In this document: piece after piece, positions 17,970 to 38,123 of the stretch
Layout of the letters: every line of letters begins with the position of its first letter
Numbering within the stretch: position 1 is the stretch's first letter
Assembly (NCBI GenBank): GCA_021827405.1
Contig: JAKAVY010000002.1
Location: 12,464-76,463, forward strand
DNA: 64,000 nucleotides
From: Thermoplasmata archaeon
Lineage (GTDB): Archaea > Thermoplasmatota > Thermoplasmata > Lutacidiplasmatales > UBA184
Reading direction: 5' to 3'
Notes under the pieces: generated by a model
Told to the model about the DNA's origin: nothing
Seen by the model: only the letters and a program-made list of their open reading frames with translations
Databases searched by the model: none
Program-made: the position numbers and the translations under genes

Positions 17970-18311
17970 GTTCGCTCCATCCCGGAGGCGTTCACCGGAT
18001 ACACAAGGGCGCCGCAACGGTTAGGAGGGAGGGAGCCCGGGGCCGGGACGTTGCTAAGGAGCCGGCGGCAAAGCCATTCCCTGGCAACGTGGGAGACAGG
18101 GAAGGACTTCGGCGGCCCCGGCCCCGCCCTGAGCCTCTCGCGAAGGCCCAGGGGCCCAGTTCTCCCCCGGGCCGCGACTGGTGAATGGCCGACCCCGAAG
18201 GGCATGAACGAAGTGACTGCAGGGTCCCCCCGGTGAGGTATGGGCATTGCCCGATAGGGCAAGCCCGCTCTCCGTGCCCAGCTTAATGCTCTATCAAGAC
18301 CTCTCCGTCCC

Positions 18312-18701
18312 ATGACCGAACTGAGGAAGCTCTGGGTAGGGTCCATCGTGGTGGAATGCAAGAACTTCTCTGAGATGTTCACCTTCTGGAAAGCGGCCCT
18401 AGGGTACGAGGCCCGCGATCCGCCCTCGGAGGACTGGGTGGTGCTTCACGACCCCGAGGGGAAGGGGCCGAACATCTCCCTCCAGAAGGTCGGGGAGGGT
18501 CCAGGCCCCGACTACCGCTTCCACTTCGATCTGTATTCCTCCGCCCCGGAAGAGGAGGGCCAGAGGTTAGTGAGGCTCGGGGCCAGGATGCTGGAGCCTT
18601 TCCAGGAAGGACGCGACTTTGCGACCCTCCAGGACCCCGACGGGAACCCTTCCGATGTGATCGACACCCGGGGCTTCGCCTTCGGCCAGCGCGCAGCGTG
18701 A
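18312..18701 (+). CDS. VOC/glyoxalase-family protein
   Basis: 129 aa. Glyoxalase-like beta-alpha-beta-beta-beta pattern with conserved H/E positions (RFHFDLY, ATLQDPDGN). Confidence 0.65.
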   Translation: MTELRKLWVGSIVVECKNFSEMFTFWKAALGYEARDPPSEDWVVLHDPEGKGPNISLQKVGEGPGPDYRFHFDLYSSAPEEEGQRLVRLGARMLEPFQEGRDFATLQDPDGNPSDVIDTRGFAFGQRAA

Positions 18702-19099
18702 GCCCGGTTTGGGGGCTCTTGACCAAGGAGTCAGCCCCTCCGTTCTTCGGTCGGAAGCGCAACGACACGACCCGGTGGAAGTCCCGGAGGAGGAGGGTGA
18801 GGCACGCGAAGCGATGGGCCCGATGGGTGCCCCGCTCCTCCTTCGTCTTGACCGGCTGATTCCGCCTGGCGTCCGGGGTCTGACCATGGTAAGGCAGGTC
18901 GGGGTCGTCGATGGCGAAGTCGACCGGCTCGCCAGGAAGGATGGGTCAGACATGGCGGGGAAGGGCCAGGGTGATGGCGCGCTGGATCTTCCCGAGTGGA
19001 GGTGGCCGAGGACGTACGGGCGGTCCTGTCGGACCGACCACTCCGATACTGGGAGCGCGGGGCAAGGCCGGGGGAGCGCGTGGCGGACGCCCGGAGGAG

Positions 19100-19640
19100 A
19101 AGGTCCGCGTTGGCCACGCCTCCAAAGGAACTCGGAGGCGACGGGCGTTAGTCGTCTTCGTGGACGAGAGCGGTCTCTCGCCATCCCCTACCGTGCGAAG
19201 ACCTGGGTAACGGTGGGGAAGACCCCGGTGTTGGTGCATCAGGGGCGATGGCCGAAGGTCTCCGCGATCGGAGGGGGCACGTGTTCGCCTCCACCTGAAG
19301 GTGCGGAAGGGGTCCGTCCGCGGGTCTCAGGTGATCGCGTTCCTGAAGCGCCCCCTCCTGCACATCCGGAGGAAGCCGGTCATACTCCTCTGGGACAAGG
19401 GGCCGCACCCCGGTCCAAACTGGTGCGTGCCTTCCCGCGCCAGCCGCGTCCACTGGAGGTGCACCGACATCCCGGGCACAGCCCCGAACTGAACCCAGAG
19501 GAGTGGTTCTGGCCTCATCTCCAGACGCATGAACTGGCCAGCTACGTCCCCCATGCCCTGACAGAGTCGATGAAAGGGGTCTGGCTGGCGGTGATGAGAG
19601 CGCGGGACCACCCGCGTCTCTTGCGACCGTTCGCCCACGT
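19100..19640 (+). mobile_element. IS630/Tc1-mariner-family transposase gene remnant (pseudogene, at least 3 frameshifts, N-terminus missing)
   Basis: DDE motifs split over frames: ALVVFVDESGLSPSPTVRR, then (frame shift) VTVGKTPVLV, then KPVILLWDKGPHP (second D), then (frame shift) HSPELNPEEWFWPHLQ. No intact ORF. Confidence 0.7.
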
Positions 19641-19860
19641 CGGAGTCAGGGATCGCCGATGCGGATCGTCAAGGGACCTCATGTGAAGCCACAGCGGTGG
19701 GGTTCAAGGAAATTACTTGACGGTCAAGAATACCACTGTGCTTGCCTTACAAGCTTAACCCCACCCCTCGAGAGGTGCTTATCGCGGGGGAAGGACGGTT
19801 GGACGGACACGACCTGTGCCCAAAGACGGCTCCGGTGTCCAAACAGGGGGCAGACCTTCT

Positions 19861-20406
19861 TCAAGACCGAAATGTGAGGTAGGCTCCAGAAGGGAAGGAA
19901 ACAGACTCGGAATCAGAACTTGGGTTGAAGAGAATGAATACCCATTTTGAACTTCCACCGGCTATCCATGGAGTAGAATTGGCGAAAAATACGGCGCCAA
20001 GACTCCTATTAAAGTCACTAAGGTGGCTCAATGGTGACGAAATTATGGTCTGGTACTCCGACATTCTAAAAATCGCAAAGGAAATGTTCTGATATTGCCC
20101 TGGAAAGTCGACGGAAAGATTGAGCTGGCCTTGGGCGGAGGAGGGCGTGGTGAAGTTCACCGTCAGCAGCCCTCCCTGAGCGAGCGGCAGGGTGACTCCC
20201 GACGGCAGGAGACCTACCGTACACTCCGCAGCCGAAGAGACCGAATAGCACGTCCAGTCCTGAGATGGGGCGGTGGGCGGGGGCGGCCGGGTCAATTCGA
20301 AGATGAGGGTAGAGCCTGTGAACACTAGGGCAGCCACCAGGACGGCAATCACGACCCGCCCCCGGCCTAATCGCCTATCCTGCCGAACTGGGGGATCCAC
20401 TTCCAC
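19861..20406 (-). CDS. Hypothetical N-terminally anchored secreted protein in a low-GC segment
   Basis: N-terminal TM helix VVIAVLVAALVFTGSTLIF, then a Ser/Thr-rich ectodomain with N-x-S/T sequons. Local GC is about 50% against about 70% in the flanks. Confidence 0.4.
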   Translation of the reverse strand: MEVDPPVRQDRRLGRGRVVIAVLVAALVFTGSTLIFELTRPPPPTAPSQDWTCYSVSSAAECTVGLLPSGVTLPLAQGGLLTVNFTTPSSAQGQLNLSVDFPGQYQNISFAIFRMSEYQTIISSPLSHLSDFNRSLGAVFFANSTPWIAGGSSKWVFILFNPSSDSESVSFPSGAYLTFRS

Positions 20407-20822
20407 CCCTCCAAGGAAGCCTAAGGGTCAGGTCGACTGCGGGACCTGGGGCGATGAAACAACAAGGATCCTGATAAGAGCAGCGTTGGGTTCCTGACAG
20501 AAATAGAACAACTGCACTGATACCTGTCCGCCCCATACACGCCATATGTCCTTCGAACTTATACATCGGCCTGAGGCGAGTTAAGGAAGATACTAGACGG
20601 TTACTGTCGCTTCAGGCTTTGAGGCAAGACAACTACAGGCCCTCTCGCAGTCGGAGAAGCTGAGTCCGGGTCAGTGGGATGGGTCACCGCTCCACCTCGG
20701 ACGTCCCCGGGTGGATCTCCCGGATGACTTTTGCGAGTTCGCAAAACTCCGGACCCACTTTTGCGAACTCACATGGGAGACGGGGAAGAGGCTCTTATGT
20801 CCCCCCGGGGGTCTGCCTCATC

Positions 20823-21200
20823 ATGTTCCGAAAGGTGGACTGCGTGCGTCTCCACGTCGGGGACCTGGACTCTGCACTTGCGTTCTACTCCAGGAAGCTT
20901 GGGCACCCGCTCCTCTGGAAAGACGGCACCACAGCGGCGGGCCTCCAGATGGGAGGCTCCGGCTCCGAGCTCGTGCTCGTCTCTGGAGAGAGCCCACCGG
21001 AGACCGACCTCAAAGTAGACTCCGTGGAAAGGAGCATCCGGCAGTTCGTGGAGGCAGGCGGGAGGGTCGTGGAACCTCCCTTCGACATCAAGATCGGACG
21101 GTGCGCTGTGGTCCAAGACCCATGGGGGAATCGCCTGGTCCTCCTGGACTCGAGCAAGGGGCTCTTGAAGACCGATGCGGAAGGGAACGTTGTTGGATAG
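20823..21200 (+). CDS. VOC/glyoxalase-family protein
   Basis: MFRKVDCVRLHVGDLDSALAFY...VVQDPWGNRLVLLD is a classic glyoxalase/bleomycin-resistance fold signature. The upstream part of the track ORF was rejected. Confidence 0.7.
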   Translation: MFRKVDCVRLHVGDLDSALAFYSRKLGHPLLWKDGTTAAGLQMGGSGSELVLVSGESPPETDLKVDSVERSIRQFVEAGGRVVEPPFDIKIGRCAVVQDPWGNRLVLLDSSKGLLKTDAEGNVVG

Positions 21201-21747
21201 GCCATCGGCCAGGCGGCGAGGGCGGTCTAGGCCTCGAACCCCTCCAACTAACGGTCAGGGGACCCCTCACGTCAGCCATCGGACGAAGGGCTAGGGAACC
21301 TAGCCTCTCTCCGGTTGTCCCATAAGATTGGACCTCGCTCCTACGCTCGTATCCGAGTGCGGTCGTGAGACTCCCGCCGGGGGATCCCGGCACTTTTGGT
21401 GGCGGCCAATGGGTTGGCCTTCGAATACACCGTGCGGGAAGAGCTTGCGGCGGCCCCCTCCCCAAGTCACGGTAATGATCTCCGATGAGATCGCTGGAGC
21501 CGTTCGGGTGATCGGATGGCCCGAACGACATGCCAGATTCCACACGGCCAGGACCACCCCGGGGAGATTGGGAGCTTCCTGACACATCTGGACTTTCAGC
21601 CCGCGTCTGGCGGCTGAAAGACGCCCGGAGGGCGTTCGGAGAGAGCGGGGACCCTTGCGACCTCCGAGGGCAGGATGAGGAGGGGTCCACCACGACCTTC
21701 AAGCTCCCAAGCGCGCCTCTCCGATTGGGCTAACGGAGCGGTCTCCG

Positions 21748-22278
21748 ATGGTTCGAAATCAGGGTCGGGTCACACGGTTCGTCGTGATGGCCATGCTCCA
21801 GGCGGCCCGGGCGGAGAGGCTCGGGCTTACACGAGAGTCCGCCTACTCATGGGGGTTGAACCGAGCGATCTTCTATGCGGCGGCCAAGCGTGGGTTCAAG
21901 ACCGGGGAACCGGGAGAGGGGGGAGGCGACAAGAAGCCTCCCGGCCACATCTATCACCTGGGGGAGGATGAGGCGTTCCTAGACCCGGACGCCAAGGAGT
22001 TGCGGTTTACAATTGGGGGAGAGACGCAGACACCGGAACGTTTCGAGCAGCAAGTCATTGCCCGGTTCGTGACGAAGGAAAACTTCCACAAGGCGTGGGA
22101 GGAGGCCCAGCAGGTCGTGGCGAGGTTCGATGGTGCCACTCTCGGCTCACCCCACCGGTTTTACGCCGAGGTCTACCATCCCCGGCGGGACGAGCTCTCG
22201 GACCGGTGGACGAAGGCATACAACCCGGCCCCTCCGTCGAGAAGGGGTACCCGGGTAGAACCGGGGAGCGGAGCCTGA
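21748..22278 (+). CDS. Hypothetical protein
   Basis: 176-aa ORF with ordinary composition and no recognised motif. Confidence 0.35.
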   Translation: MVRNQGRVTRFVVMAMLQAARAERLGLTRESAYSWGLNRAIFYAAAKRGFKTGEPGEGGGDKKPPGHIYHLGEDEAFLDPDAKELRFTIGGETQTPERFEQQVIARFVTKENFHKAWEEAQQVVARFDGATLGSPHRFYAEVYHPRRDELSDRWTKAYNPAPPSRRGTRVEPGSGA

Positions 22279-22645
22279 GGCGACCGACCTCGACCCATGA
22301 ACGACCGGTCGAGGGGGCTCTCTTGGAAGCACCTGTTGTGGCGAGAATCTCCCTTCACGGGGCCGGCGAAGATGTTCCTGGTGCCCATCGAGAGCCAGTC
22401 CAGGGAGGGCCCCCGTCCGTTAAGGACCTCATTCGATCTTCCTCGACCCGGCAGGTCACGGCCGGGCTCGGCGCGGCCGCCTCCAAGGGTACCTCGCGAG
22501 AAGGAAGCATCGTGCTCCCCTCGCGAGGGTATCTCTGGAAGCAACCCTGAACCTGGCCTCTAGGCGTGGACCCAGGTTTCTCTCAGAAAGGTTCCGCTAC
22601 GTGGAGGACTACGGTAACGCTGGCGTCAGGGTGCAGGGAGGAAGT

Positions 22646-22719
22646 AGCGGGGCATGGATTTGAACCATGGATCTACGGGTTATGAGCCCGTCGGGATGAC
22701 CTGACTACCCTACCCCGCT
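22646..22719 (-). tRNA. Archaeal initiator tRNA-Met (anticodon CAU), no encoded CCA
   Basis: Reverse complement AGCGGGGTAGGGTAGTCAGGTCATCCCGACGGGCTCATAACCCGTAGATCCATGGTTCAAATCCATGCCCCGCT. A1:U72 pair. Anticodon stem ACGGG/CCCGT with 3 consecutive G:C pairs. CAT anticodon. T-arm CATGG-TTCAAAT-CCATG. Confidence 0.85.
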
Positions 22720-22928
22720 TCGGGGGCAATCACCACCCTTACGGTATTTGAAGCTGAGCGGACCCGAGGGCCCCGGCGCGGCCTTGGAGAGCGCGTCTGA
22801 GCAAGGGGACGGACCGCCGGGCCCAGACCTGCCGTCTGCCCCGGGATCGAGGCGGGACCTCCCAGGCGAGGACCCCCGATGCGAGGGAGCCGGTCCCCAC
22901 GCCGGGCCCCGCGAATCTTCAAGTACTC

Positions 22929-23312
22929 ATGTTGATTATCGTCGACATGATGTCGACCTCCGAGCTCGAGGCGCTGGGGCCACGTCTCGAGCGGCTCACC
23001 GGCGAGGAGACGACCTGCTGCCTTCCGGAATACCGCGCCCTCGCAGAGCGGATTGCCCGCTCCCAGCGCTTTCCTGAGCTTCTGCTTCAGGTCCGGGCGA
23101 TCGCAGACGAAAAGCGGCTTTTGGTCGTGCACCTGTTGAAGCGCCGCGGCGAGCTCTGCGCCTGCGAGGTCCAAGCGGCCATCGGCGTCGGTCACGCGAC
23201 AGTCAGCCATCACATGAGGGTGCTCACCGCCGCCGGGGTCGTGAGGGCCCGAAGGGAAGGGAAGTGGGCCTACTATCGCTTGACCCCCGCGGGACGGAGG
23301 CTTTTATCATGA
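22929..23312 (+). CDS. arsR: ArsR/SmtB-family metalloregulator
   Basis: ELCACEVQAAIGVGHATVSHHMRVLTAAGVV...EGKWAYYRL (metal-binding Cys pair plus wHTH). Confidence 0.8.
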   Translation: MLIIVDMMSTSELEALGPRLERLTGEETTCCLPEYRALAERIARSQRFPELLLQVRAIADEKRLLVVHLLKRRGELCACEVQAAIGVGHATVSHHMRVLTAAGVVRARREGKWAYYRLTPAGRRLLS

Positions 23313-24148
23313 CGCCACGTTCGATCGGGAACGTCGACCCCGATCGGGTCAGGGACCAGGTCCGGAAGCGCTACGCCCCGCTGGCCTCCGGGTCCGGCTG
23401 CTGCGGAAGCTCGTCCGACTCGACGGAGTGTTGCGGTGGCGACACCGCCTCCCTCGAACTGGGCTATTCCGCCGACGACCTCTCCGGTCTGCCCGAAGGT
23501 TCCCACCTCGGTCTTGGCTGCGGAAACCCGGTCTCTCTCGTCTCTCTCCGGCCCGGGGAGGTCGTCTTGGACCTGGGGAGCGGAGCCGGGGTCGACTGCT
23601 TCCTCGCTTCCCGGAAGGTGGGCCCCCGGGGCCATGTCATCGGTGTGGACATGACCCCCGAGATGCTGACGAAAGCACGGGCCAACGCTCGCCAGGGGGG
23701 GTTTGACAACGTGGAGTTTAGGCTTGGCGAGATCGAGCACCTCCCCGTGGCCGACCAGAGCATTGACGTGGTCCTGTCCAACTGCGTCATCAATCTCGCC
23801 CCGGACAAGGAGAGAGTGTACCACGAGGCCTTCCGGGTGCTGGCCCCGGGAGGCCGGCTCGCGGTGTCGGACGTGGTGGCGACCCGACGCATCGCTGCAA
23901 AGGAACGGGCCGATCCTTCCCTCTGGTCCTCCTGTTCCTCGGGTGCCATCGGAGTGGGCCGGCTGAGGAGCCTTTTGGGGCGGGTCGGGTTCCGCGACGT
24001 CCGGATCGACCTCGACCCCGGAGCCGGCTCAGCCTCCAGCCTCCAGGGACAGTCTTCCCTGGGGGTTGTGCCGGCCCGGATCTGCGGGTTGAAGCCCAAG
24101 GCCGGGCTTCCTCCCTCGCTCACAAGATCCCTGTCCCGCGCGGTCTGA
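23309..24148 (+). CDS. arsM: Arsenite S-adenosylmethionine methyltransferase
   Basis: Cys clusters (GCCGSSSDSTECCGG) plus SAM-MTase motif VLDLGSGAGVD. ATGA overlap with arsR at 23309-23312. Confidence 0.8.
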   Translation: MTPRSIGNVDPDRVRDQVRKRYAPLASGSGCCGSSSDSTECCGGDTASLELGYSADDLSGLPEGSHLGLGCGNPVSLVSLRPGEVVLDLGSGAGVDCFLASRKVGPRGHVIGVDMTPEMLTKARANARQGGFDNVEFRLGEIEHLPVADQSIDVVLSNCVINLAPDKERVYHEAFRVLAPGGRLAVSDVVATRRIAAKERADPSLWSSCSSGAIGVGRLRSLLGRVGFRDVRIDLDPGAGSASSLQGQSSLGVVPARICGLKPKAGLPPSLTRSLSRAV

Positions 24149-24288
24149 CGGCCGGTTCCGCGCCCGGTCGCCCGCCCGGGCCACCCTCCGCCCCGACCCC
24201 TTTGTCCCGAAAAGGGGGTTCCGAAAGATCCGGCGTCGCCTCGAGGGGCCCCGCCGAGTCTAAATCTCCCGGTCCATGGGTGGCGCCC

Positions 24289-25440
24289 ATGCTCGTGGAC
24301 GGGATCGCCGAATCCCCCATCCTCTCCCTCATCGACCAGATCTTCCGGCTCCAGCAGCGCGGGGAAGACATCCTGGGCCTGCACATCGGCGAGCCGGACT
24401 TCGAGACCCCGCTTGGCATTCGCCAGGCCGCGTGCCAAGCCTTGGAGGAAGGGCGGACCCACTACACGTCCGCCCAAGGGCTGCCCGAACTCCGACGCGC
24501 CCTCGCTTCCCGGCTGAAGACCCACTTCCGGATCCCATCGACGCCCGAGAGCCTCGTCATCTTGCCCGCCAAGTTCGCGATCTATGCCACGCTGCTGGCC
24601 TGTGTCAACCCCGGGGACGACGTCCTCCTCCCGGATCCCACGTATCTGTTCGAACAGCCCGTCCAGCTCGCGGGGGCGCGGCCGGTCTACTTCCCGCTAC
24701 GGGAGGATTTCTCCTTGGACCTCCGGTCGCTCGAAGCGCAAGTGACCCCCCGGAGCCGGGCCCTCTTCCTGGTCACTCCCGCGAACCCTACTGGACGCGT
24801 GCTCCGACGGGAGGAAGTGGAAGAGGCGCTGGCTCTCGCCCAACGGCACCACCTGACGGTGGTCAGCGATGAGACGTACGCTTCCCTCCTCTACGAGGGG
24901 TCGCTGGTCTCCCCGGCCAGCTTGGCCCCGGAAGAGGTGCCGGTGGCCACCATCGGGAGCTTCTCGAAGGAGTTCGCCATGACCGGTTGGAGGATCGGGT
25001 TCGTGAATTCTCCTCCCGCCATCACCCAGAGGTTGGTGAAGGTCGTAGAGCACACCCTCACCTGCCTTCCCCCGTTCATCCAGCGCGCCGCGCTTTGGGC
25101 GCTGGAGCATGGAGGGGAGGACGCCGCTCGCTTCCGCGAGGCCTTCCGTCATCGCCGGGACCTTATCTGTGGGCTCCTGAAAGGGGCCCCGGGTCTTTCC
25201 TGCCCCCGGCCGGAAGGGGCGTTCTACCTCTTCCCCCGCTTCCGCGCCCCCCTGACCTCCGTTAAGTTCTCCTACGCGCTTCTCAAGGAGGAACGGGTGG
25301 CGGTGGTCCCGGGGGTCGCCTTTGGGCCGCGCGGGGAGCATCACGTTCGGATCTCGTACACGGCTCCCGATGACGTCCTCCGGGAGGGCGCGGCCCGGAT
25401 CCGGCGGTTCCTGGCCGTTCACCCCGAAAGCCCTGGCTGA
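24289..25440 (+). CDS. Class I/II pyridoxal-phosphate aminotransferase (aspartate/aromatic aminotransferase-like)
   Basis: LHIGEPDF, SFSKEFAMTGWRIGF (PLP-Lys region), and the C-terminal fold. Confidence 0.8.
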   Translation: MLVDGIAESPILSLIDQIFRLQQRGEDILGLHIGEPDFETPLGIRQAACQALEEGRTHYTSAQGLPELRRALASRLKTHFRIPSTPESLVILPAKFAIYATLLACVNPGDDVLLPDPTYLFEQPVQLAGARPVYFPLREDFSLDLRSLEAQVTPRSRALFLVTPANPTGRVLRREEVEEALALAQRHHLTVVSDETYASLLYEGSLVSPASLAPEEVPVATIGSFSKEFAMTGWRIGFVNSPPAITQRLVKVVEHTLTCLPPFIQRAALWALEHGGEDAARFREAFRHRRDLICGLLKGAPGLSCPRPEGAFYLFPRFRAPLTSVKFSYALLKEERVAVVPGVAFGPRGEHHVRISYTAPDDVLREGAARIRRFLAVHPESPG

Positions 25441-25494
25441 GCCTCGTCCGGGACGGGGTTCGGCCCTTATGTACGGTCGGGCCGTCGCCCGGCC

Positions 25495-26154
25495 GTGGTC
25501 CCCCCGTCCCGCGTCTACGACCTCACCGCCCTCCTGGAGACCCACATGCCGGTGTGGCCGACCTCGCCTCTCCCCGTGTTCGAACCGACCGCGCTGGTGT
25601 CCCGGGACGGGTACTCCATCGAACGGATCGCCTGCATGAGCCACACGGGGACCCACATGGACGCCCCGTACCACTTCCTCGAGGAGGGTCTGACGGTGGA
25701 CCGGATCCCTCCCGAGAGGCTCATCGGCTCGGCCGCCGTTCTGGACCTGAGGGAGGCTTTGGAAGGGACCCGGATCGAGCGGGCGGCTCTCCAGGCCCGC
25801 TGGCCGCGGTCGTTCCAACCCGACATCGCGCTGCTCGAGACCGGCTGGAGCCGGGCCCGGGCCTCGACCCGAAAGTACCTGTACGATTTCCCTGGCCTGA
25901 CCCCAGAAGCGGCCGCCTGGGCCGCCGACCAGGGGATCCACGGGATCGGGACCGACACATTGGGCATCGATCCCTTCGAGAACGATCGGTATGAGGCCCA
26001 CAAGGTCCTGCTCCAACGCGGGATCTGGGTCCTGGAGGCGCTCGACCACCTGGACGAGCTCCATGAAGGAACGCGCTACACCCTCGTCGCCGCTCCCCTG
26101 AAGATCTCGGGGGGTAGTGGAGCCATGGCCCGGGTCCTCGCCTGGGAAGCGTAG
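25495..26154 (+). CDS. Cyclase-family protein (kynurenine formamidase/arylformamidase-like)
   Basis: HTGTHMDAPYHF metal-binding motif. Confidence 0.75.
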   Translation: MVPPSRVYDLTALLETHMPVWPTSPLPVFEPTALVSRDGYSIERIACMSHTGTHMDAPYHFLEEGLTVDRIPPERLIGSAAVLDLREALEGTRIERAALQARWPRSFQPDIALLETGWSRARASTRKYLYDFPGLTPEAAAWAADQGIHGIGTDTLGIDPFENDRYEAHKVLLQRGIWVLEALDHLDELHEGTRYTLVAAPLKISGGSGAMARVLAWEA

Positions 26155-26161
26155 GAACCGT

Positions 26162-26956
26162 ATGACCGTGACCACGGGCCTGAAGGGCGCCCGGGTCCTG
26201 ATCACCGCTGCGAGCCGAGGCATCGGCTTCGGGGCTGCCAGCGCATTCCTTCAGGAAGGGGCCCGGGTGGTCGTCAATTCCTCCCATGCCGACCGATTGA
26301 AGCAGGCCCTAGAGACCTTGCGCCCTTTCGGCGAGGTCTCGGGGGTCGTCGCCGACCTTTCCCGACAGGGGGATCTGGACCTCCTGGTGCGGGAGACCCG
26401 TGAGCGCCTTGGGGGCCTGGACACCCTCGTCTACGTCACCGGGTCTCCCCGGCCAGGGACCTTTCTCGAACAGGACTACTCCGACTGGAGCGCGGCGGCG
26501 AACCTCCTGGTGGTGAGTCCCGCCTACCTCGCCCGGCGCGCCGCGGAGCTGATGATCGAGACCTCCCCGGCGGCCCGGCAGGTCTTCCTGGCCTCGGTGG
26601 CCATCCGGGAACCTCTTCCGAACCTGGCCACCTCCAGTGTCTGTCGGATCGCGGTGGCCGGCCTGGTCCGGACCCTGGCCCGGGAGCTGGGCCCCCGCGG
26701 GGTCCGCGTGAACGGGATCCTTCCCGGGTACATCCGGACGGAAAGGATAGGCGAGGTGGCCCGGGACCAGGCGCGGCGGCACGGGACCCTTGTCGCCGAG
26801 GAGATCTCGTCGCTGGAAAGACAGATCCCCCTCGGGCGTCTGGGCACCCCGGACGAACTGGCCCGGACGATCCTCTTTCTGGGCAGCGACCTGTCCGCGT
26901 ACGTCACCGGGGCGATGGTGCCCGTCGACGGCGGGCTACTTCGGTCGGTCGGCTAG
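26162..26956 (+). CDS. SDR-family oxidoreductase
   Basis: TGASRGIG-type Rossmann motif (ITAASRGIGFGAA), plus Y-x3-K region. Confidence 0.8.
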   Translation: MTVTTGLKGARVLITAASRGIGFGAASAFLQEGARVVVNSSHADRLKQALETLRPFGEVSGVVADLSRQGDLDLLVRETRERLGGLDTLVYVTGSPRPGTFLEQDYSDWSAAANLLVVSPAYLARRAAELMIETSPAARQVFLASVAIREPLPNLATSSVCRIAVAGLVRTLARELGPRGVRVNGILPGYIRTERIGEVARDQARRHGTLVAEEISSLERQIPLGRLGTPDELARTILFLGSDLSAYVTGAMVPVDGGLLRSVG

Positions 26957-27321
26957 GGCCGGCGGGGGGGCGTCGCTTCCGGCAAGAAGTCTTCCCGCTC
27001 GGGCACGAAGACATCCAGGATGACGCTGGGGCCGGACGCGTCGGTCACCAGTTCATGAGGGACCCCTCCCGGGATCGAGTAGGCGGAGCCGGGGCGGAGG
27101 GTCCAAAGCTCACCGGCTACCCGAAACTCTCCCCCGCCCTCCAAGACCGTCCCCGCCTGCAAATGCGGGTGCGTGTGCATGGGGAACCGGGAGCTCGGGG
27201 CGATCCGGTAGAGCACCATCATCACACCCCCTCCATGCGTCAAGATCCGACGCTTAACCCCCGGAAGGACCTCATGCCAGGCGGAGGGGGAATCCTCCCA
27301 AAGGGGCATGTTCCCCGTCAC
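26953..27321 (-). CDS. Cupin-domain protein
   Basis: Cupin motifs HTHPHLQAGTVLEGGG...PGGVPHE. Confidence 0.6.
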   Translation of the reverse strand: MTGNMPLWEDSPSAWHEVLPGVKRRILTHGGGVMMVLYRIAPSSRFPMHTHPHLQAGTVLEGGGEFRVAGELWTLRPGSAYSIPGGVPHELVTDASGPSVILDVFVPEREDFLPEATPPRRP

Positions 27322-27661
27322 ACCCGTCCGTTATTTGAGCCTCTGCTCGGAGACCCGGTCGCGTCGGGCCCCTCCCAGCCGCGTTCCCGGTGAGAGCCAG
27401 CAGGGCGGGCTCCGCCATATGGCGAGGCGCTACAGCCGCCCGGCGGTCTTGGGTCTTCGGATGGGGGCCAGGGACGGACTCCTCCAACACCCGCATCCTT
27501 GACGGACCCTACCCCCGGACCCAACTCCGATGGCCAATCCGGCCCCTTGGTCCCTTCGGCCTCACCGAGGGGACAACCCCCCACGGGTCGGACACGATCG
27601 GCACCGCCACGCCAGGGTGCCAACGCTTTACTGGTGCCGGGGCTCTCGGGACTTGGAGCCC

Positions 27662-29044
27662 ATGGACCCTCTCCCCGCCAGACCCTACTTCCTTCCGGGG
27701 GGTTTCCCCTCCCCGGAGGAGGCCTTGTCCCCGGGAGCCGAGGAGGGAAACGACCCCCGGCCGGGCCCCCGCCTCCGGCCGCTGGACATCTCCGAGTTCG
27801 GGACCTTCAAGGACAGCAAGGCCGCTCCCATCCACGGCTGGTTCCAATATCCTGCCGGATTCAGCTACCGGGCGGTCGAGTTCGCCTTGGATTGGAACCG
27901 GCTCGGGAGGGGGGACCGGGTGCTCGACCCTTTCACCGGGACCGGGACGACTCAGGTGGTCTGCAAGGGGCGGGGGATCCCTAGCGCGGGGACGGAGGCG
28001 CATCCCTTCGTCGCCCGGATCGCCCGGACCAAAGTGTTCTGGGACTACGACTATGCGGAACTCCAGGAGGCCGTAGGGCGCTTCCAGGCCCACCTCCGCT
28101 CCAGCCGGGAGGAGGCCCGGCACGCCGCCGAGGAATCGGTCCCGCCCCTCCTGGGAAAGTGCTTCAGTCCCTCCAACCTCCGGGGACTCCTCTACGCCAA
28201 GCAGGAGATCCATCGCCGGGCGCCACCTCCGTTCCGGGACCTCTTTGAGGTCGCCCTCATCGGCGCCCTCCGGCAGGCGTCCGGGGCCGCTACGGGCTGG
28301 CCCTACATCTCCCCACGAAAGAGGATCACGGAGAAGGACGGGATCGACACCTTCCTCTCCCAGCTCGACCGATGCGTCCGAGACCTTGGGGGAACCCCCC
28401 CGCGCTTCCGACGGACCCCGGCGGAGGTCGTGGAGGGGGATTGCCGCCAGAGTCCCTTCCAAGACGCCTCCTTCACGTTCGCCTTCACCTCGCCCCCGTA
28501 CCTGAACAACTACGACTACGCGGACCGCACTCGGCTCGAGGGGTACTTCACCGGCTTCGCCCGGAGCTGGGGGGAGATCAGCCAGAAGGTCCGGGAGAAG
28601 CTGGTCATGTCCGCCACCACCCAGGTCCTGCGCTCTCGCTTCCGGACCACGGATATCCTGGAACCCGCGGTCTGGGACGCCTCCCCCGCGGTCGCTGAGG
28701 AGATCCAGCGGAAGGTCGACCTGCTCACCGAGCGACGTTGGGAGAAGGGCGGCAGGAAGAGCTACGACGTGCTCGTAGGGCAGTACTTCAATGACCTCAC
28801 CCGTTCGCTTAAGGAGGCGGCCCGTCTCCTGAGGCGGGGTTCCCGCTACATGCTCATCTTGGGGGATTCCGCTCCCTACGGGGTCCATGTCCCGACGGAA
28901 GCCTATCTGGGCAGGATCGCCTGCGGGCTGGGTTTCCAGAGCTATCGGTTGTTCCCGCTTCGTTCACGGGGAGACAAGTGGCGGTCGAACCCCCAGCGCC
29001 ACCAGGTCCCTCTGAAGGAGTCCCTGCTCGTTCTGGAACGCTGA
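27662..29044 (+). CDS. Amino-group (N4-cytosine/N6-adenine type) DNA methyltransferase, orphan
   Basis: Motif I VLDPFTGTGTT...GRGIPSAGTE, then about 230 aa later motif IV FTSPPYLNNYDY. Start chosen at the internal ATG (MDPLPARPYF). Confidence 0.5.
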   Translation: MDPLPARPYFLPGGFPSPEEALSPGAEEGNDPRPGPRLRPLDISEFGTFKDSKAAPIHGWFQYPAGFSYRAVEFALDWNRLGRGDRVLDPFTGTGTTQVVCKGRGIPSAGTEAHPFVARIARTKVFWDYDYAELQEAVGRFQAHLRSSREEARHAAEESVPPLLGKCFSPSNLRGLLYAKQEIHRRAPPPFRDLFEVALIGALRQASGAATGWPYISPRKRITEKDGIDTFLSQLDRCVRDLGGTPPRFRRTPAEVVEGDCRQSPFQDASFTFAFTSPPYLNNYDYADRTRLEGYFTGFARSWGEISQKVREKLVMSATTQVLRSRFRTTDILEPAVWDASPAVAEEIQRKVDLLTERRWEKGGRKSYDVLVGQYFNDLTRSLKEAARLLRRGSRYMLILGDSAPYGVHVPTEAYLGRIACGLGFQSYRLFPLRSRGDKWRSNPQRHQVPLKESLLVLER

Positions 29045-29078
29045 GACCGCGGAGACGCCTCCTCCTCTCCCTTGGCGG

Positions 29079-29540
29079 TCAGTCCTTCCCGCGGCCCCCT
29101 CTCAGGTCCTTCTCCAGGCGCCGGGCTTCGCGTTCCACGCGCTGCGCAGCCTCGTGCCAGGTCCGCGCCACGATCGGTCCCAGGGAGAAGACCACGGTGG
29201 TGATCACCGAACCGACCGAAACGAAGGCCATCACCGAGGCGTAGATCTTCGACGTGTCCGTGGTCAGCGGGAACGGCGGGCCCTGGCCGGTGGCCAACAT
29301 GCTCTCGAAGTAGAAGGCGTCCACCCAGTCGAGCCCGGCCGTCAAGCGAAACCCCACCGTCCCTACCACCAGAACGGCCGCGAGGAGGCTCAGGGCATAG
29401 ACCGCCCTCCGACGCGAGACCCGGGGAAGGTTGTCCAAAGGAACTCCCGGTGCGGGAGGGGTGGCTGGGGTCGCCGACCCGTTCACCCCGGGGAAGCCCG
29501 TGGACATGGGTCTCATGGGGGCACACCCCCCCTTCCCCAT
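29079..29540 (-). CDS. Small 2-TM pore-loop ion-channel-like protein with non-canonical filter
   Basis: TM1 AVYALSLLAAVLVVGTVGF, pore helix/filter DAFYFESMLATGQGPPFP (cf. K+ channel TxGYGD), TM2 IYASVMAFVSVGSVITTVVF. Confidence 0.5.
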   Translation of the reverse strand: MGKGGCAPMRPMSTGFPGVNGSATPATPPAPGVPLDNLPRVSRRRAVYALSLLAAVLVVGTVGFRLTAGLDWVDAFYFESMLATGQGPPFPLTTDTSKIYASVMAFVSVGSVITTVVFSLGPIVARTWHEAAQRVEREARRLEKDLRGGRGKD

Positions 29541-29705
29541 CTACCTTTGCGCGCGCCGCGGGCCTCCCGGACGGCCGGGCCGGACGGCCTCCTTGAAGGT
29601 CGCCCGCTCCCGAGGGACCCCCCGTGGACCCGGGGGGTCATCGGAATCGCGGACTTCCGCGACCCATGGTCAAGTCCCCGCGCCGGCGCGAATCCCCGGG
29701 GATCC

Positions 29706-30068
29706 TTACGGAGGGGGCCAAGAAGGGGAATCTGGCCGACCAGGACCCCCCCTCCGCCGTCGGCGCGGTGCGCTCCTCCGGGCAGGGACCCAGCCGTGGA
29801 GGTCCATGCGCACCCTTCCCCCGCGGAAAGTCACCCCTTCGATCTGAAGGCGGAGACGCTGCTCCAGCCCTTCTTCCCCTCGGAGCGAGATCCGACCTCC
29901 GGCCCCCACGACCCGGTGCCAGGGCAGTCCTCGCCCCTGGTGGAGCGCCCACACGGTCAAACGCGCGGCCCCCGGCAAACCTCCCGCCTCGGCGACCTGC
30001 CCGTAGGTGAGGACCTTCCCCCGCGGAATGCTCGAGATAACCTGTTGGAGCCTCCCCAACCGGGACAT
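29706..30068 (-). CDS. Alkyltransferase-like protein (ATL; MGMT-fold without the active-site Cys)
   Basis: YGQVAEAGGLPGAARLTVWALHQGRGLPWHRVV. The PCHRV active site of Ogt/MGMT is replaced by PWHRV, as in ATL proteins. Confidence 0.7.
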   Translation of the reverse strand: MSRLGRLQQVISSIPRGKVLTYGQVAEAGGLPGAARLTVWALHQGRGLPWHRVVGAGGRISLRGEEGLEQRLRLQIEGVTFRGGRVRMDLHGWVPARRSAPRRRRRGGPGRPDSPSWPPP

Positions 30069-30217
30069 GAACGCCCCCCGTCTCGGAGGGAGCCTCGAAG
30101 GTCTATGACGGTCGCCCTGGCGCTCCCGGCAGGGACCTCGCCGCCTCGCGCTCCTCCGGGAAGACGAGGCCGAGGACCTTGTCGTAAGGGATAGAACGCC
30201 GACCCCTGAAGAAAAGA

Positions 30218-30290
30218 AGCCGCGGGAGGGAATCGAACCCTCGACCTACTCCTTACCAAGGAGTCGCTCTACCGACTGAGCCACCGCGGC
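30218..30290 (-). tRNA. tRNA-Thr (anticodon GGU), no encoded CCA
   Basis: Reverse complement GCCGCGGTGGCTCAGTCGGTAGAGCGACTCCTTGGTAAGGAGTAGGTCGAGGGTTCGATTCCCTCCCGCGGCT. Cloverleaf with 7-bp acceptor stem, GGT anticodon in loop TTGGTAA, T-loop GGTTCGATTCC. Confidence 0.85.
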
Positions 30291-30403
30291 ACGCGTTCCG
30301 GGGGGCCGTACGGCGACGGGGTAATAGCCTTGCCTGAGACCCACCTCCGTTTCCCCCCGGTCCCCCCTCCTCGGGACGAGGACGACGGCGGTGGGTTTCT
30401 GGT

Positions 30404-31471
30404 TCAGGGTGGGGACCCGCGGGCGTCCCCTTCGGCGGTCCGCTTCCCTCGGTGGGCCAAACTGCCGCCCGGAGCTCCGGGGCCTCCATAGTAGTCTCCC
30501 CAGCGGGCCAGTGCCGGGTCGGGCCCGGACCCCCCTTCCTGGAGGTCCAACCGGGCGAGGTCCAGGGCCCGTTCGAGAGGGTTTCCCGGACGGACCCAGG
30601 GGAAGGCCGAGAGCGCGAAAAGGTCCCCGGCCCCGCGCGACAAGGGGCGAGGCTCCCGCTTCTCCAGGAAGGCCCCCATGCCCTCCCTCTGACCCTCCGA
30701 TTCGAACAGCATCCCCCAGAGGTCCCGTTCGTACTGCAATCCCTCCAGCCGGGCCTCGTCCGCCGCATGGCTCACCGCATACTTTGCCGCCGCCAAGGCC
30801 TCGGGGGGTTTGGCTGCCAAGGTCTGCGCCAAGGTGATGGCGGATTCCAGCAGTTGGTCCGGGGGGAGGAGCCGGGTGACCAACCCCGCCTCGAAAGCCT
30901 CCCGGGCCGTCTTCCGCGCCCCGGTGAGGATCCATTCCCTCGCCCGGGTCACCCCGAGGATCCGGGTCAGCCTCCGGGTCCCCCCCCACCCCGGGATGAT
31001 CCCGAGATTGATCTCCGGTTGCCCGAAGACCGCCTCCTCGCTCGCGAGGACGAAGTCACAGGCCTCGGCCAGTTCCGAGCCTCCGCCCAGGCAGGCCCCG
31101 TGAACCGCGGCGACGACCGGCAAGGGCATCCATTCGATCAAGTTCGTGACCGCTTGGCCCTTGAGCGAATGCAGTCGGGCCGTTTCGTGGGAAAGGGGGG
31201 CCATCTCCTTGATGTCGGCCCCGCCGGAAAAGGCTCGCTGTCCGACTCCGGTGAGGACCAACGCCCTCGCCGTGCCCTCCTCGAGGAGGTCCGCCAAGGC
31301 CTTGGCCAGGTCGCTCAGCAGGGCGCTGGAGAGGATGTTCAGCGGAGGATGGGAGAGGTAGACGACCGCCACCGGCCCTTGGCGCTGCACCCGGACCAGG
31401 GACTGGCGGCCGGCCGCTCCTCCCGACACAGGGGAAGGGCCGGGCGAAGGGGCGGAGCTGGGCCCCGGCAT
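30404..31471 (-). CDS. Enoyl-CoA hydratase/isomerase (crotonase) family protein with about 90-aa C-terminal extension
   Basis: ALVLTGVGQRAFSGGADIKE and GGGSELAEACDFVLASEEAVFGQPEINLGIIPGWGGT are crotonase signatures. Start chosen at the internal Met. Confidence 0.75.
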   Translation of the reverse strand: MPGPSSAPSPGPSPVSGGAAGRQSLVRVQRQGPVAVVYLSHPPLNILSSALLSDLAKALADLLEEGTARALVLTGVGQRAFSGGADIKEMAPLSHETARLHSLKGQAVTNLIEWMPLPVVAAVHGACLGGGSELAEACDFVLASEEAVFGQPEINLGIIPGWGGTRRLTRILGVTRAREWILTGARKTAREAFEAGLVTRLLPPDQLLESAITLAQTLAAKPPEALAAAKYAVSHAADEARLEGLQYERDLWGMLFESEGQREGMGAFLEKREPRPLSRGAGDLFALSAFPWVRPGNPLERALDLARLDLQEGGSGPDPALARWGDYYGGPGAPGGSLAHRGKRTAEGDARGSPP

Positions 31472-31733
31472 CCTCAGTCCCCCGGAGGGGATGGGAGCCC
31501 CCGGCCTGCGAGCTCCCCGACCCGTCGGCCGATGTTCCCTCGCTCTCCGTTGCCATACTCCCGGTCCCCGCCGTGCGCCATCCTGAATCCCGTTCGACTT
31601 CATCCTGCCCGGCTATTTCCCCCTTCTTTCCCGAGGGCGGGTCCGAGCGCCTTCCGGGAGGCTCGACCCCCGTCCCCAGGCACACGAATCCGAGGAAGGA
31701 TAGCCTGATAGGGGGCAGGGACCTCCTCCGATC

Positions 31734-32099
31734 ATGGCCGCGTCGCGGGAAGCCCAGACCTTGACCCGGCTGCTCGGCGGATTGAAAGGGGGTTCCCTCG
31801 CCATGGAGGTCTCCGGGGCCCCGCTTCTCATGCTCGACGCGAACGCAAGGGAGGTCCAGTTCGACCTGGACCCCCTTTTGCCCCGCCAGGGCGAGCTACG
31901 GGGCCTGCTCCACGAGGAGAAGGTGAGCCTGTGGAAGAACCTGGGGGTCCCGGGGGACCTCGCCAGGATGGGCTGGCGGGTCCGGCTGCGGCTCGAGCAG
32001 GAGGACGTGCTCGCTCTGGGCCGCGGGACGAACCCTCTCTTAGGGCACGTCCACCTTTCGCGAGGGAGCTTGAAGCTCCTGCGGAAGGAGCTTCACTGA
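31734..32099 (+). CDS. Hypothetical protein
   Basis: 121-aa ORF in a gap not explained by other genes. No motif. Confidence 0.3.
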   Translation: MAASREAQTLTRLLGGLKGGSLAMEVSGAPLLMLDANAREVQFDLDPLLPRQGELRGLLHEEKVSLWKNLGVPGDLARMGWRVRLRLEQEDVLALGRGTNPLLGHVHLSRGSLKLLRKELH

Positions 32100-32326
32100 C
32101 GGATCGCCGCGATATTGCTCGCCACGTGCGCTTCCTTCTCCGGGGCCGTGAGGTCGCGCATGTGGACGGCTATCGTGATCGTCCCGGATACCTTGACCCC
32201 CATGCGGGAGCCGCCCAGGTTCATCGTCAGGTCCTGGAGCCGGATGTCCACCTGGCTGTGCTTGTCCGATAGCGCCTCGATCAGTCCCTCGACCAGCCCC
32301 TTGCTCACGTCCTCGGATTCGTCCAT
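32093..32326 (-). CDS. Small hypothetical protein (possible amphi-Trp-like fold)
   Basis: 78 aa from the internal Met (MDESEDVSKGLVEGLIEAL...). The upstream part of the track ORF is Arg-rich junk. Confidence 0.3.
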   Translation of the reverse strand: MDESEDVSKGLVEGLIEALSDKHSQVDIRLQDLTMNLGGSRMGVKVSGTITIAVHMRDLTAPEKEAHVASNIAAIRQ

Positions 32327-32458
32327 GGGAATACCTCCCTCGGCACCGCGGCGCAGCGGATTAACCCTCGGGCGAACGTCCCTCTGCCCCGAACGCCGCT
32401 TTGGCTCGGCCCCTCGAGGCATTCCCAGAGGGGGTTGGCCAACGCGTCGCCTGACCGG

Positions 32459-32998
32459 TCAGGGCTTGTGCCCGCGGGCTCGCCGAACCGGTCGTGCCGG
32501 GGGACGGTTCAGGATCCAGACCATCTGGGGCGGCTTCCGGTCCATCTGCCAGAACAGGGCGATGATCTCCCCCAGGTGATGCGCCTCCTCAAAGGTCGTC
32601 TGCCAGAGGGCGTCCTCCACCGTGTAGTACCCCGGCATCCAGGGCGCTCGCACCCGGCGCTGAAGTTCCTCGTCGGTGAGGTCCCGGAGGGTCTTCGTCA
32701 CCATCTTCCAGACCCGGGCCGACTCCCGGCGGACGGCCGCATGGGTGTGAGGGGGAGGCTCCGCGCTCCGGGCCTGCCGGAGGGCCTGGAGCTCCCGAGC
32801 CCGGTCGTGGAGGATGTAGCCCAGCCACCCCTCGTACACCCCGAGGATGTGCAGCAAGGTCCCCGTCAAGGACTCGTGCCCCGCCCCCCGGGGCCGGGAC
32901 GCCTCCTCCCAGGGCAGTTCCCCCACCGCCTTCAGGAAACGCTCGAAGACCCGGTGATTGTAGGCGAAGAGCCTCCGGTAGTCCTCGACGTCGGCCAT
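32459..32998 (-). CDS. DinB/YfiT-family (DinB_2) metal-dependent four-helix-bundle protein
   Basis: HILGVYEGW ... EEAHHLGEI histidine triad pattern. Confidence 0.65.
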   Translation of the reverse strand: MADVEDYRRLFAYNHRVFERFLKAVGELPWEEASRPRGAGHESLTGTLLHILGVYEGWLGYILHDRARELQALRQARSAEPPPHTHAAVRRESARVWKMVTKTLRDLTDEELQRRVRAPWMPGYYTVEDALWQTTFEEAHHLGEIIALFWQMDRKPPQMVWILNRPPARPVRRARGHKP

Positions 32999-37685: not shown

Positions 37686-38123
37686 CTACGGCTTCAGCAG
37701 GATACCGGGCTGGCCCCAGAGCTTCAACCAGACCCGCTGGCCCACGAAGACCGTGGGGGAGAGCGACTCCCAGTACCGCACCTCCCACTTCCGGGCCCAC
37801 AGGACCACCTCCTTCACCGGAGCGTCAGGCCCCTTGGCCGGATGCAGGAAGTCCGAGACCGTCTTCAGGGTCGACCCGACGGATCCCTGGTCCCCGACCG
37901 CGGAGACGAGCAACGGTGCCGGATCCGGTAGCGGGATCGGAGGGTAGTCCGGGAGGGTCACCAGCCCCACCGGCGCCAGAGACCCCTGGCCCCGCTTAAG
38001 GGACTGGACCATGGCCTCGGCCGTCACCGGGGTCCCCCCCACGGAGGGGAAGGAGGCTTCGACCTCCGCGAACTGGCGAGCGAGGGGAAAGTCCTCCCAC
38101 CGGGGGACGACCGGGCTGGTCAT
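37686..38123 (-). CDS. Hypothetical protein
   Basis: 145-aa ORF filling a gap. No motif. Confidence 0.35.
   Translation of the reverse strand: MTSPVVPRWEDFPLARQFAEVEASFPSVGGTPVTAEAMVQSLKRGQGSLAPVGLVTLPDYPPIPLPDPAPLLVSAVGDQGSVGSTLKTVSDFLHPAKGPDAPVKEVVLWARKWEVRYWESLSPTVFVGQRVWLKLWGQPGILLKP

Follow-up and report, generated by a model that had tools for sequence, protein, structure and literature searches.

The ATL gene and its surroundings

The window, by which we mean the whole 64-kb stretch of DNA analyzed here, contains on its minus strand a gene for an alkyltransferase-like (ATL) protein. As the sequence-only reading had stated, this gene lies directly 3′ of a tRNA-Thr gene; the two are on the same strand. 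The gene, the elements within it and its neighbors on either side are as follows.

29706..30068, minus strand: ATL ('MGMT family') coding sequence, 120 residues plus stop codon (ATG-to-stop ORF; PF01035 match; PDB matches; identity to YbaZ)
29778..30068, minus strand: folded ATL domain, residues 1-97, made up of an N-terminal helix, helix-turn-helix, PWHRV loop and C-terminal extension (AlphaFold2, Foldseek)
30003..30005, minus strand: Tyr22 codon TAC, the counterpart of the base-flipping Tyr25 of Atl1 (alignment, with Atl1 residues numbered as in the PDB chain)
29961..29963, minus strand: Arg36 codon CGT, equivalent to Atl1 Arg39, the arginine finger (alignment)
29919..29921, minus strand: Trp50 codon TGG, where AGT/Ogt proteins have their alkyl-acceptor Cys (alignments)
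29706..29777, minus strand: basic Arg/Pro-rich C-terminal tail, residues 98-120, and stop codon; predicted to be disordered (pLDDT)
30218..30290, minus strand: tRNA-Thr(GGT), the upstream neighbor of ATL; context, with no part in ATL function (ARAGORN)
29079-29540, minus strand: NaK/MthK-like 2-TM cation-channel pore, 153 residues (PDB NaK 3k0d, E 5.8e-5)
27530-29044, plus strand: DNA N6/N4 methyltransferase, 504 residues (partial PF01555 match, SPPY motif)

The translated ATL sequence, MSRLGRLQQVISSIPRGKVLTYGQVAEAGGLPGAARLTVWALHQGRGLPWHRVVGAGGRISLRGEEGLEQRLRLQIEGVTFRGGRVRMDLHGWVPARRSAPRRRRRGGPGRPDSPSWPPP, is 120 residues long and contains the motif LPWHRVV. The window has a GC content of ~69% and is crowded with spurious overlapping ORFs. 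The part of the ATL gene that encodes the folded domain has GC contents of 0.75, 0.54 and 0.80 at the first, second and third codon positions, a pattern like that of the real genes of the window, and its start codon is aligned with the starts of many homologs (MSTLARLR...). Residues 8-79 match PF01035 (DNA_binding_1, the 6-O-methylguanine DNA methyltransferase DNA-binding domain) with an E-value of 9.6e-16 and a score of 57.8 bits, set against a Pfam cut-off of 27 bits. This match is far beyond chance and the observation is real.

The ATG of the gene is separated from the tRNA by 149 nt. Inspection by eye of the sequence upstream of the ATG identified no clear TATA box, just a G-run at -12 to -7 and a weak TCATAGA. 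Directly after the 3′ end of the tRNA, at 30200-30217 on the minus strand, is a T-rich tract (CTTCTTTTCTTC) that fits an archaeal oligo-T terminator; with such a terminator in place ATL would have its own promoter.

An AlphaFold2 model of the protein, for which 42 homologs served as input, has a mean pLDDT of 82.7; by block, the mean is 87-94 up to residue 90 and falls to 72 in residues 91-100. The helices at residues 22-28 and 35-44 are modelled at pLDDT values above 90, and residues 99-108 and 110-116 fall below 50. Foldseek aligns the model along its entire length with the ATL structures 2kif and 3gva (101-102 columns; target TM-scores 0.79 and 0.75, respectively), and with AGTs over 77-91 columns that correspond to their C-terminal domain alone. 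The superposition on 2kif and 3gva, together with the PF01035 match, agrees with the earlier proposal that the MGMT DNA-binding fold is kept.

The 2-TM channel and the methyltransferase that had been noted beside ATL were both recovered. The channel assignment comes from a match to the NaK/MthK pore (E about 5e-5), and Pfam Ion_trans_2 scores just 15.5 bits, under its cut-off. The filter of the channel reads ATGQGP, compared with TVGYG in K+ channels and TVGDG in NaK, and its selectivity is therefore probably unusual, judging from this motif. The order ATL then channel recurs in at least one other archaeal locus. In the methyltransferase, which is recognized by its partial PF01555 match and SPPY motif, motif I (DPFTGTGTT) comes before motif IV (TSPPY) in the sequence. 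No recognizable restriction enzyme lies beside the methyltransferase and none of 80 related loci has a homolog of it near ATL, and it may be an orphan or a variable gene.

Other genes of the surrounding region were recorded in passing. A DinB_2/DinB superfamily protein is encoded at 32459-32998 on the minus strand (E 1.2e-15), 2.4 kb from ATL and with no evident functional link to it; an enoyl-CoA hydratase gene and two small ORFs without a family match lie between the two. On the other side, an ArsR-family HTH regulator gene (22929-23312, plus strand) overlaps the start of a gene for a SAM-dependent methyltransferase (Methyltransf_31, 23264-24148) just downstream of tRNA-Met (22644-22719), and the two look like a regulator-methyltransferase pair. 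Small ORFs with good coding GC3 and no Pfam match are present at 31734-32099 (plus strand), 32093-32422 (minus strand) and 21748-22278 (plus strand), for which matches were considered up to an E-value of 5, and at 37686-38123 (minus strand), for which the threshold was E ≤ 0.001. Two small ORFs without a Pfam match are found at 20.7-22.3 kb, and the 21748-22278 protein is conserved in three related loci.

A tryptophan at the alkyl-acceptor position

The features that define ATLs, the mechanism of these proteins and their occurrence in archaea have been described, and ATLs are known in all three domains of life, archaea included (PMC10779285). The protein encoded in the window is an ordinary member of this family. 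It consists of a single domain, and the N-terminal domain of AGTs is absent, with no room for one in the 149 nt that precede the ATG. At the position of Trp50, Atl1 (W56), YbaZ and vpAtl also have Trp in the alignments, and E. coli Ogt and M. tuberculosis OGT have Cys, so that the nucleophilic Cys of the AGT motif PCHRV is replaced by Trp. There is no cysteine anywhere else in the protein, and it is therefore impossible for it to act as a thiol alkyl acceptor. Y22 and R36, the counterparts of Atl1 Y25 and R39, are the Tyr and Arg finger that ATLs and AGTs share: both are invariant across the ATLs and AGTs of alignment A2, and in alignment A1 the Tyr is again invariant and the Arg is conserved in at least 90% of sequences. 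The Asn hinge of AGTs is absent, with HQ---GRG in the window protein versus GSNPIS in Ogt and GHNPIA in MtOGT, and its position is variable in the ATL family consensus.

The N-terminal helix and C-terminal extension are of the ATL type, and overall the protein is nearer to the characterized ATLs than to AGTs. PDB sequence matches are strongest for vpAtl (2kif, E 3.4e-15 over residues 7-97) and Atl1 (3gva, E 4.1e-10), compared with 8.9e-6 for the best AGT. E. coli YbaZ/Atl has 42% identity over 92 residues (E 2e-17), and the match to E. coli Ogt amounts to 36 bits over 60 residues. Alignment to YbaZ, Atl1 and Ogt, which the sequence-only reading had proposed as a check, thus places the protein closer to YbaZ and Atl1 than to Ogt. 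The curated models for Ogt and Ada all score it below their cut-offs: 28.5 against 46.4 for TIGR00589, 24.7 against 192 for NF007626 (the Ogt equivalog) and 15.3 against 345 for NF011964 (Ada). The central claim of that reading, an ATL with PWHRV in place of PCHRV, is accordingly borne out by sequence, profile, structure prediction and family conservation.

Since TGG differs from TGC and TGT by one third-position base, the gene might be thought a real canonical Ogt/AGT with a miscalled codon, or else a decayed ogt pseudogene. We consider this extremely improbable. Trp occupies the position of W50 in 42 of 42 sequences of alignment A1, in 119 of the top 120 homologs from the database and in all 80 related genomic loci (L001-L080), which come from different assemblies. 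This conservation across independent proteins and loci excludes the sequencing error at the Trp codon that had been named earlier as what would refute the assignment. The missing AGT N-terminal domain and the lack of space for it, the absent Asn hinge, the scores beneath the Ogt model cut-offs, and an intact ORF with coding-type GC3 all argue in the same direction. The sole variation in the motif affects its His, which gives PWSRV, PWYRV or PWQRV in a few members each (P0006, P0053, P0120; L040), with the Trp kept throughout. In AGTs the His of PCHRV belongs to the network that activates the Cys, and for this reason the His may be dispensable in ATLs.

Of the 982 source-named database homologs, the majority bear the name 'MGMT family protein [Thermoplasmata archaeon]'. 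Names from JGI are 'methylated-DNA-protein-cysteine methyltransferase related protein' and, once, 'alkylated DNA nucleotide flippase Atl1'. Existing pipelines thus already recognize the family. The gene is correctly annotated as an ATL, under the name 'DNA base-flipping protein' or 'MGMT family protein', and should not be called a methyltransferase. As one more archaeal ATL it has little significance past annotation; the probable Acidobacteriota origin of the archaeal clade and the loop and tail differences of the subfamily are its sole points of mild interest.

Genomic setting and descent of the gene

The sequence-only reading had also raised a possible island context, and this part of it found no support. 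According to this explanation the genes for ATL, the channel and the methyltransferase, all directly 3′ of tRNA-Thr(GGT), would have come in with a genomic island that integrated at the tRNA 3′ end. A 28-nt probe from this end, with up to three mismatches allowed, matches the tRNA alone in the 64 kb, so that the window contains no direct repeat of it, and such a repeat is likewise absent among the direct repeats of 18000-30300. Composition is flat, with GC of 0.665-0.705 across 27.5-30.5 kb versus ~0.69 in the flanks. The neighboring genes, unremarkable ones of metabolism and regulation, encode the enoyl-CoA hydratase, channel, DNA methyltransferase, cupin, SDR, cyclase, aminotransferase and ArsR-type regulator, and there is no integrase or recombinase among the ~24 neighboring ORFs with Pfam annotation. 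A megablast search of 27000-31700 gave no match in a plasmid collection.

Comparison with related loci gives the island explanation some footing. The methyltransferase is without a homolog near ATL in the 80 loci, the channel recurs in few of them, gene order around ATL differs among relatives, and the ATL family shows signs of ancient inter-domain transfer. Against this, the locus L026 has the order enoyl-CoA hydratase, tRNA-Thr(GGT), ~3.9 kb of other genes and ATL, all in the same orientation as in the window, and thus keeps the arrangement of these three genes. In a further locus, L018, ATL adjoins the aminotransferase/cyclase/SDR/cupin block that in the window lies at 23-27 kb. The archaeal ATLs moreover form one clade with ~73% mean identity, which fits vertical descent. 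Given these observations we judge it very unlikely that ATL is island cargo. The negative island evidence and the L026 and L018 arrangements indicate instead that ATL is a long-term chromosomal resident in a region with local gene turnover. No gene family is found in more than 5 of 40 archaeal loci when ORFs within 4 kb of ATL are clustered. Few loci have a tRNA close to ATL, and its identity varies (Cys, Ala, Thr).

The top match to the window protein has 81% identity in the protein database and 80% among GTDB representative genomes. The closest representative-genome loci (60-80% identity) are from soil Thermoplasmata MAGs and include the Lutacidiplasmatales (GTDB order UBA184) loci L001, L012 and L027; their genome GC of 65-71% matches that of the window. 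The window also encodes a Nop56/58-type snoRNP protein and gyrase B and is archaeal. The host is probably a Lutacidiplasmatales/UBA184-like archaeon; the sequence-only reading had not recognized its archaeal nature.

The next-closest ATL loci (52-68% identity) belong to Acidobacteriota (Bryobacterales, Terriglobales). When a neighbor-joining tree is rooted on vpAtl and Atl1, the archaeal ATLs group as a single clade inside an acidobacterial grade, with mean identities of 73% within archaea and 60% between the domains. These relationships suggest one old transfer from Acidobacteriota-like bacteria to archaea followed by vertical descent, and because the tree is built on 90 columns without bootstrap it is to be read as suggestive. 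The gene would then represent a probable move of a repair accessory gene from Acidobacteriota to soil Thermoplasmata. A separate observation concerns the contig DATGJP010000067.1 (locus L016, 10001-10309), which is labelled Bryobacteraceae and has an ATL that falls within the archaeal clade, beside that of L002; the contig may be archaeal and mis-binned, or the gene may have returned to bacteria by transfer.

Proposed function and comparison with studied ATLs

We consider it likely that the gene encodes a stand-alone ATL of a soil Thermoplasmata archaeon that marks lesions for excision repair, acquired long ago from bacteria and resident on the chromosome rather than carried by an island at tRNA-Thr. 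By analogy with the ATLs that have been studied, the protein likely binds O6-alkylguanine, does not transfer the alkyl group and hands the lesion over to excision repair. The helix-turn-helix would bind the DNA minor groove, and Arg36, helped by Tyr22, would insert into the helix and flip the O6-alkylguanine into the pocket. There Trp50, in place of the acceptor Cys, would close the pocket and the lesion would be held tightly; since Trp50 replaces the cysteine, the alkyl group would stay on the lesion. The resulting long-lived and strongly bent protein-DNA complex would mark the lesion for nucleotide excision repair. This is the mechanism that has been worked out for E. coli Atl, vpAtl and Atl1.

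The excision system that receives the lesion would probably be bacterial-type UvrABC, which Lutacidiplasmatales genomes, from the archaeal order of the host, are reported to encode (PMC9287336). On the strength of this report a hand-off from ATL to UvrA is plausible by analogy, and the Uvr partner system of the lineage, being of bacterial type, may also have been acquired. Gene linkage lends the downstream partner no support, as ATL has no repair gene nearby and no conserved neighbor: in tblastn with the E. coli proteins as queries, no hit for UvrA or UvrB reached 80 bits, either in the window or up to 10 kb from ATL at the 80 related loci, and no other repair genes are present over the same range. 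A canonical ogt was also sought, and E. coli Ogt has no tblastn match at E ≤ 1e-5 in the window or the 80 loci. An ATL-family HMM run against six-frame ORFs of at least 40 residues detects a single MGMT-type domain in the 64 kb, that of ATL itself, and the supplement of the Lutacidiplasmatales paper contains no entries for K00567 (Ogt) or K07443 (ATL) (PMC9287336). If the host is without a canonical Ogt, ATL would be its sole dedicated O6-alkylguanine sensor, as in S. pombe.

The absence of Uvr linkage at the window and the related loci would also suit an ATL fold that feeds a different downstream logic, such as an archaeal nuclease of the EndoV, XPF or Bax1-XPB type, a shield or stall signal, or recognition of a different modified base. 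ATL-EndoV and AGT-EndoV fusion proteins are reported in archaea (PMC10779285). In these the nuclease domain is part of the protein, whereas the ATL of the window is a stand-alone protein of 120 residues with a nuclease neither fused nor adjacent. The protein has a loop that is 3 residues shorter, an altered recognition helix and a basic disordered tail, and the replacement of the PWHRV His by Ser, Tyr or Gln in a few homologs might likewise be taken as a sign of altered use; every base-flipping residue is nevertheless kept. The nearest relatives outside the archaea, the Acidobacteriota ATLs, are expected to work with UvrABC, the system that the archaeal order is itself reported to possess (PMC9287336). 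For these reasons we hold a downstream route of this other kind to be unlikely and prefer the hand-off to UvrABC.

Several traits set the Thermoplasmata and Acidobacteriota proteins somewhat apart. Across the subfamily the loop that precedes PWHRV lacks 3 residues relative to the ATLs of E. coli, Vibrio and S. pombe. The recognition helix has the sequence ARLTVWAL or ARQVVWAL versus AR.VG.A in the studied ATLs, and basic tails of variable length and sequence are present in both archaeal and acidobacterial homologs. Lesion preference may differ as a consequence of the shorter loop and of the Arg found at the pocket position of Atl1 Arg69, which is Pro in most relatives. The shortened capping loop, the ARLTVWAL/ARQVVWAL helix and the basic disordered tail would also be the grounds for viewing this clade as a distinct functional subtype that, in the archaeal host, passes O6-alkylguanine or some different bulky lesion to an archaeal nuclease outside the Uvr system, or that acts as a lone lesion shield. 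We think it quite unlikely that the clade has diverged to this extent; were it so, the subtype would provide a handle on the poorly understood excision repair of archaea.

The canonical AGT/Ogt proteins (E. coli, M. tuberculosis and human AGT/MGMT) have in common with the window protein a homologous DNA-binding domain, C-terminal in AGTs, with the helix-turn-helix, the Tyr, the Arg finger and the P-x-H-R-V frame, and E. coli Ogt has ~90 additional N-terminal residues in alignment A2. V. parahaemolyticus vpAtl (2kif/2kim; 37% identity, 101 Foldseek columns) is the top match by both sequence and structure, and this match takes in the N-terminal helix and the C-terminal extension. It differs in having PWFRV where the archaeal protein has PWHRV, like Atl1 and YbaZ, and in its longer loop and lack of an Arg-rich tail. 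S. pombe Atl1 (3gva, 3gx4; ~31-39% identity) has PWHRV in common with the archaeal protein, and its Y25, R39 and W56 correspond to Y22, R36 and W50. Its R69 aligns with R63, a position at which the window ATL has Arg and most archaeal family members have Pro. Atl1 is a eukaryotic protein and is coupled to eukaryotic NER (Rad13/XPG). E. coli YbaZ/Atl (b0454, 'DNA base-flipping protein') shares the single MGMT C-terminal-type domain, PWHRV, the Tyr and the Arg finger, and differs in its bacterial host, in ~30 extra N-terminal residues, in having no basic C-terminal tail and in a loop before PWHRV that is 3 residues longer (LKRLPEGSTLPW versus LHQGRGLPW in the archaeal ATL). Its gene, ybaZ, is a stand-alone gene, as is that of the archaeal ATL.
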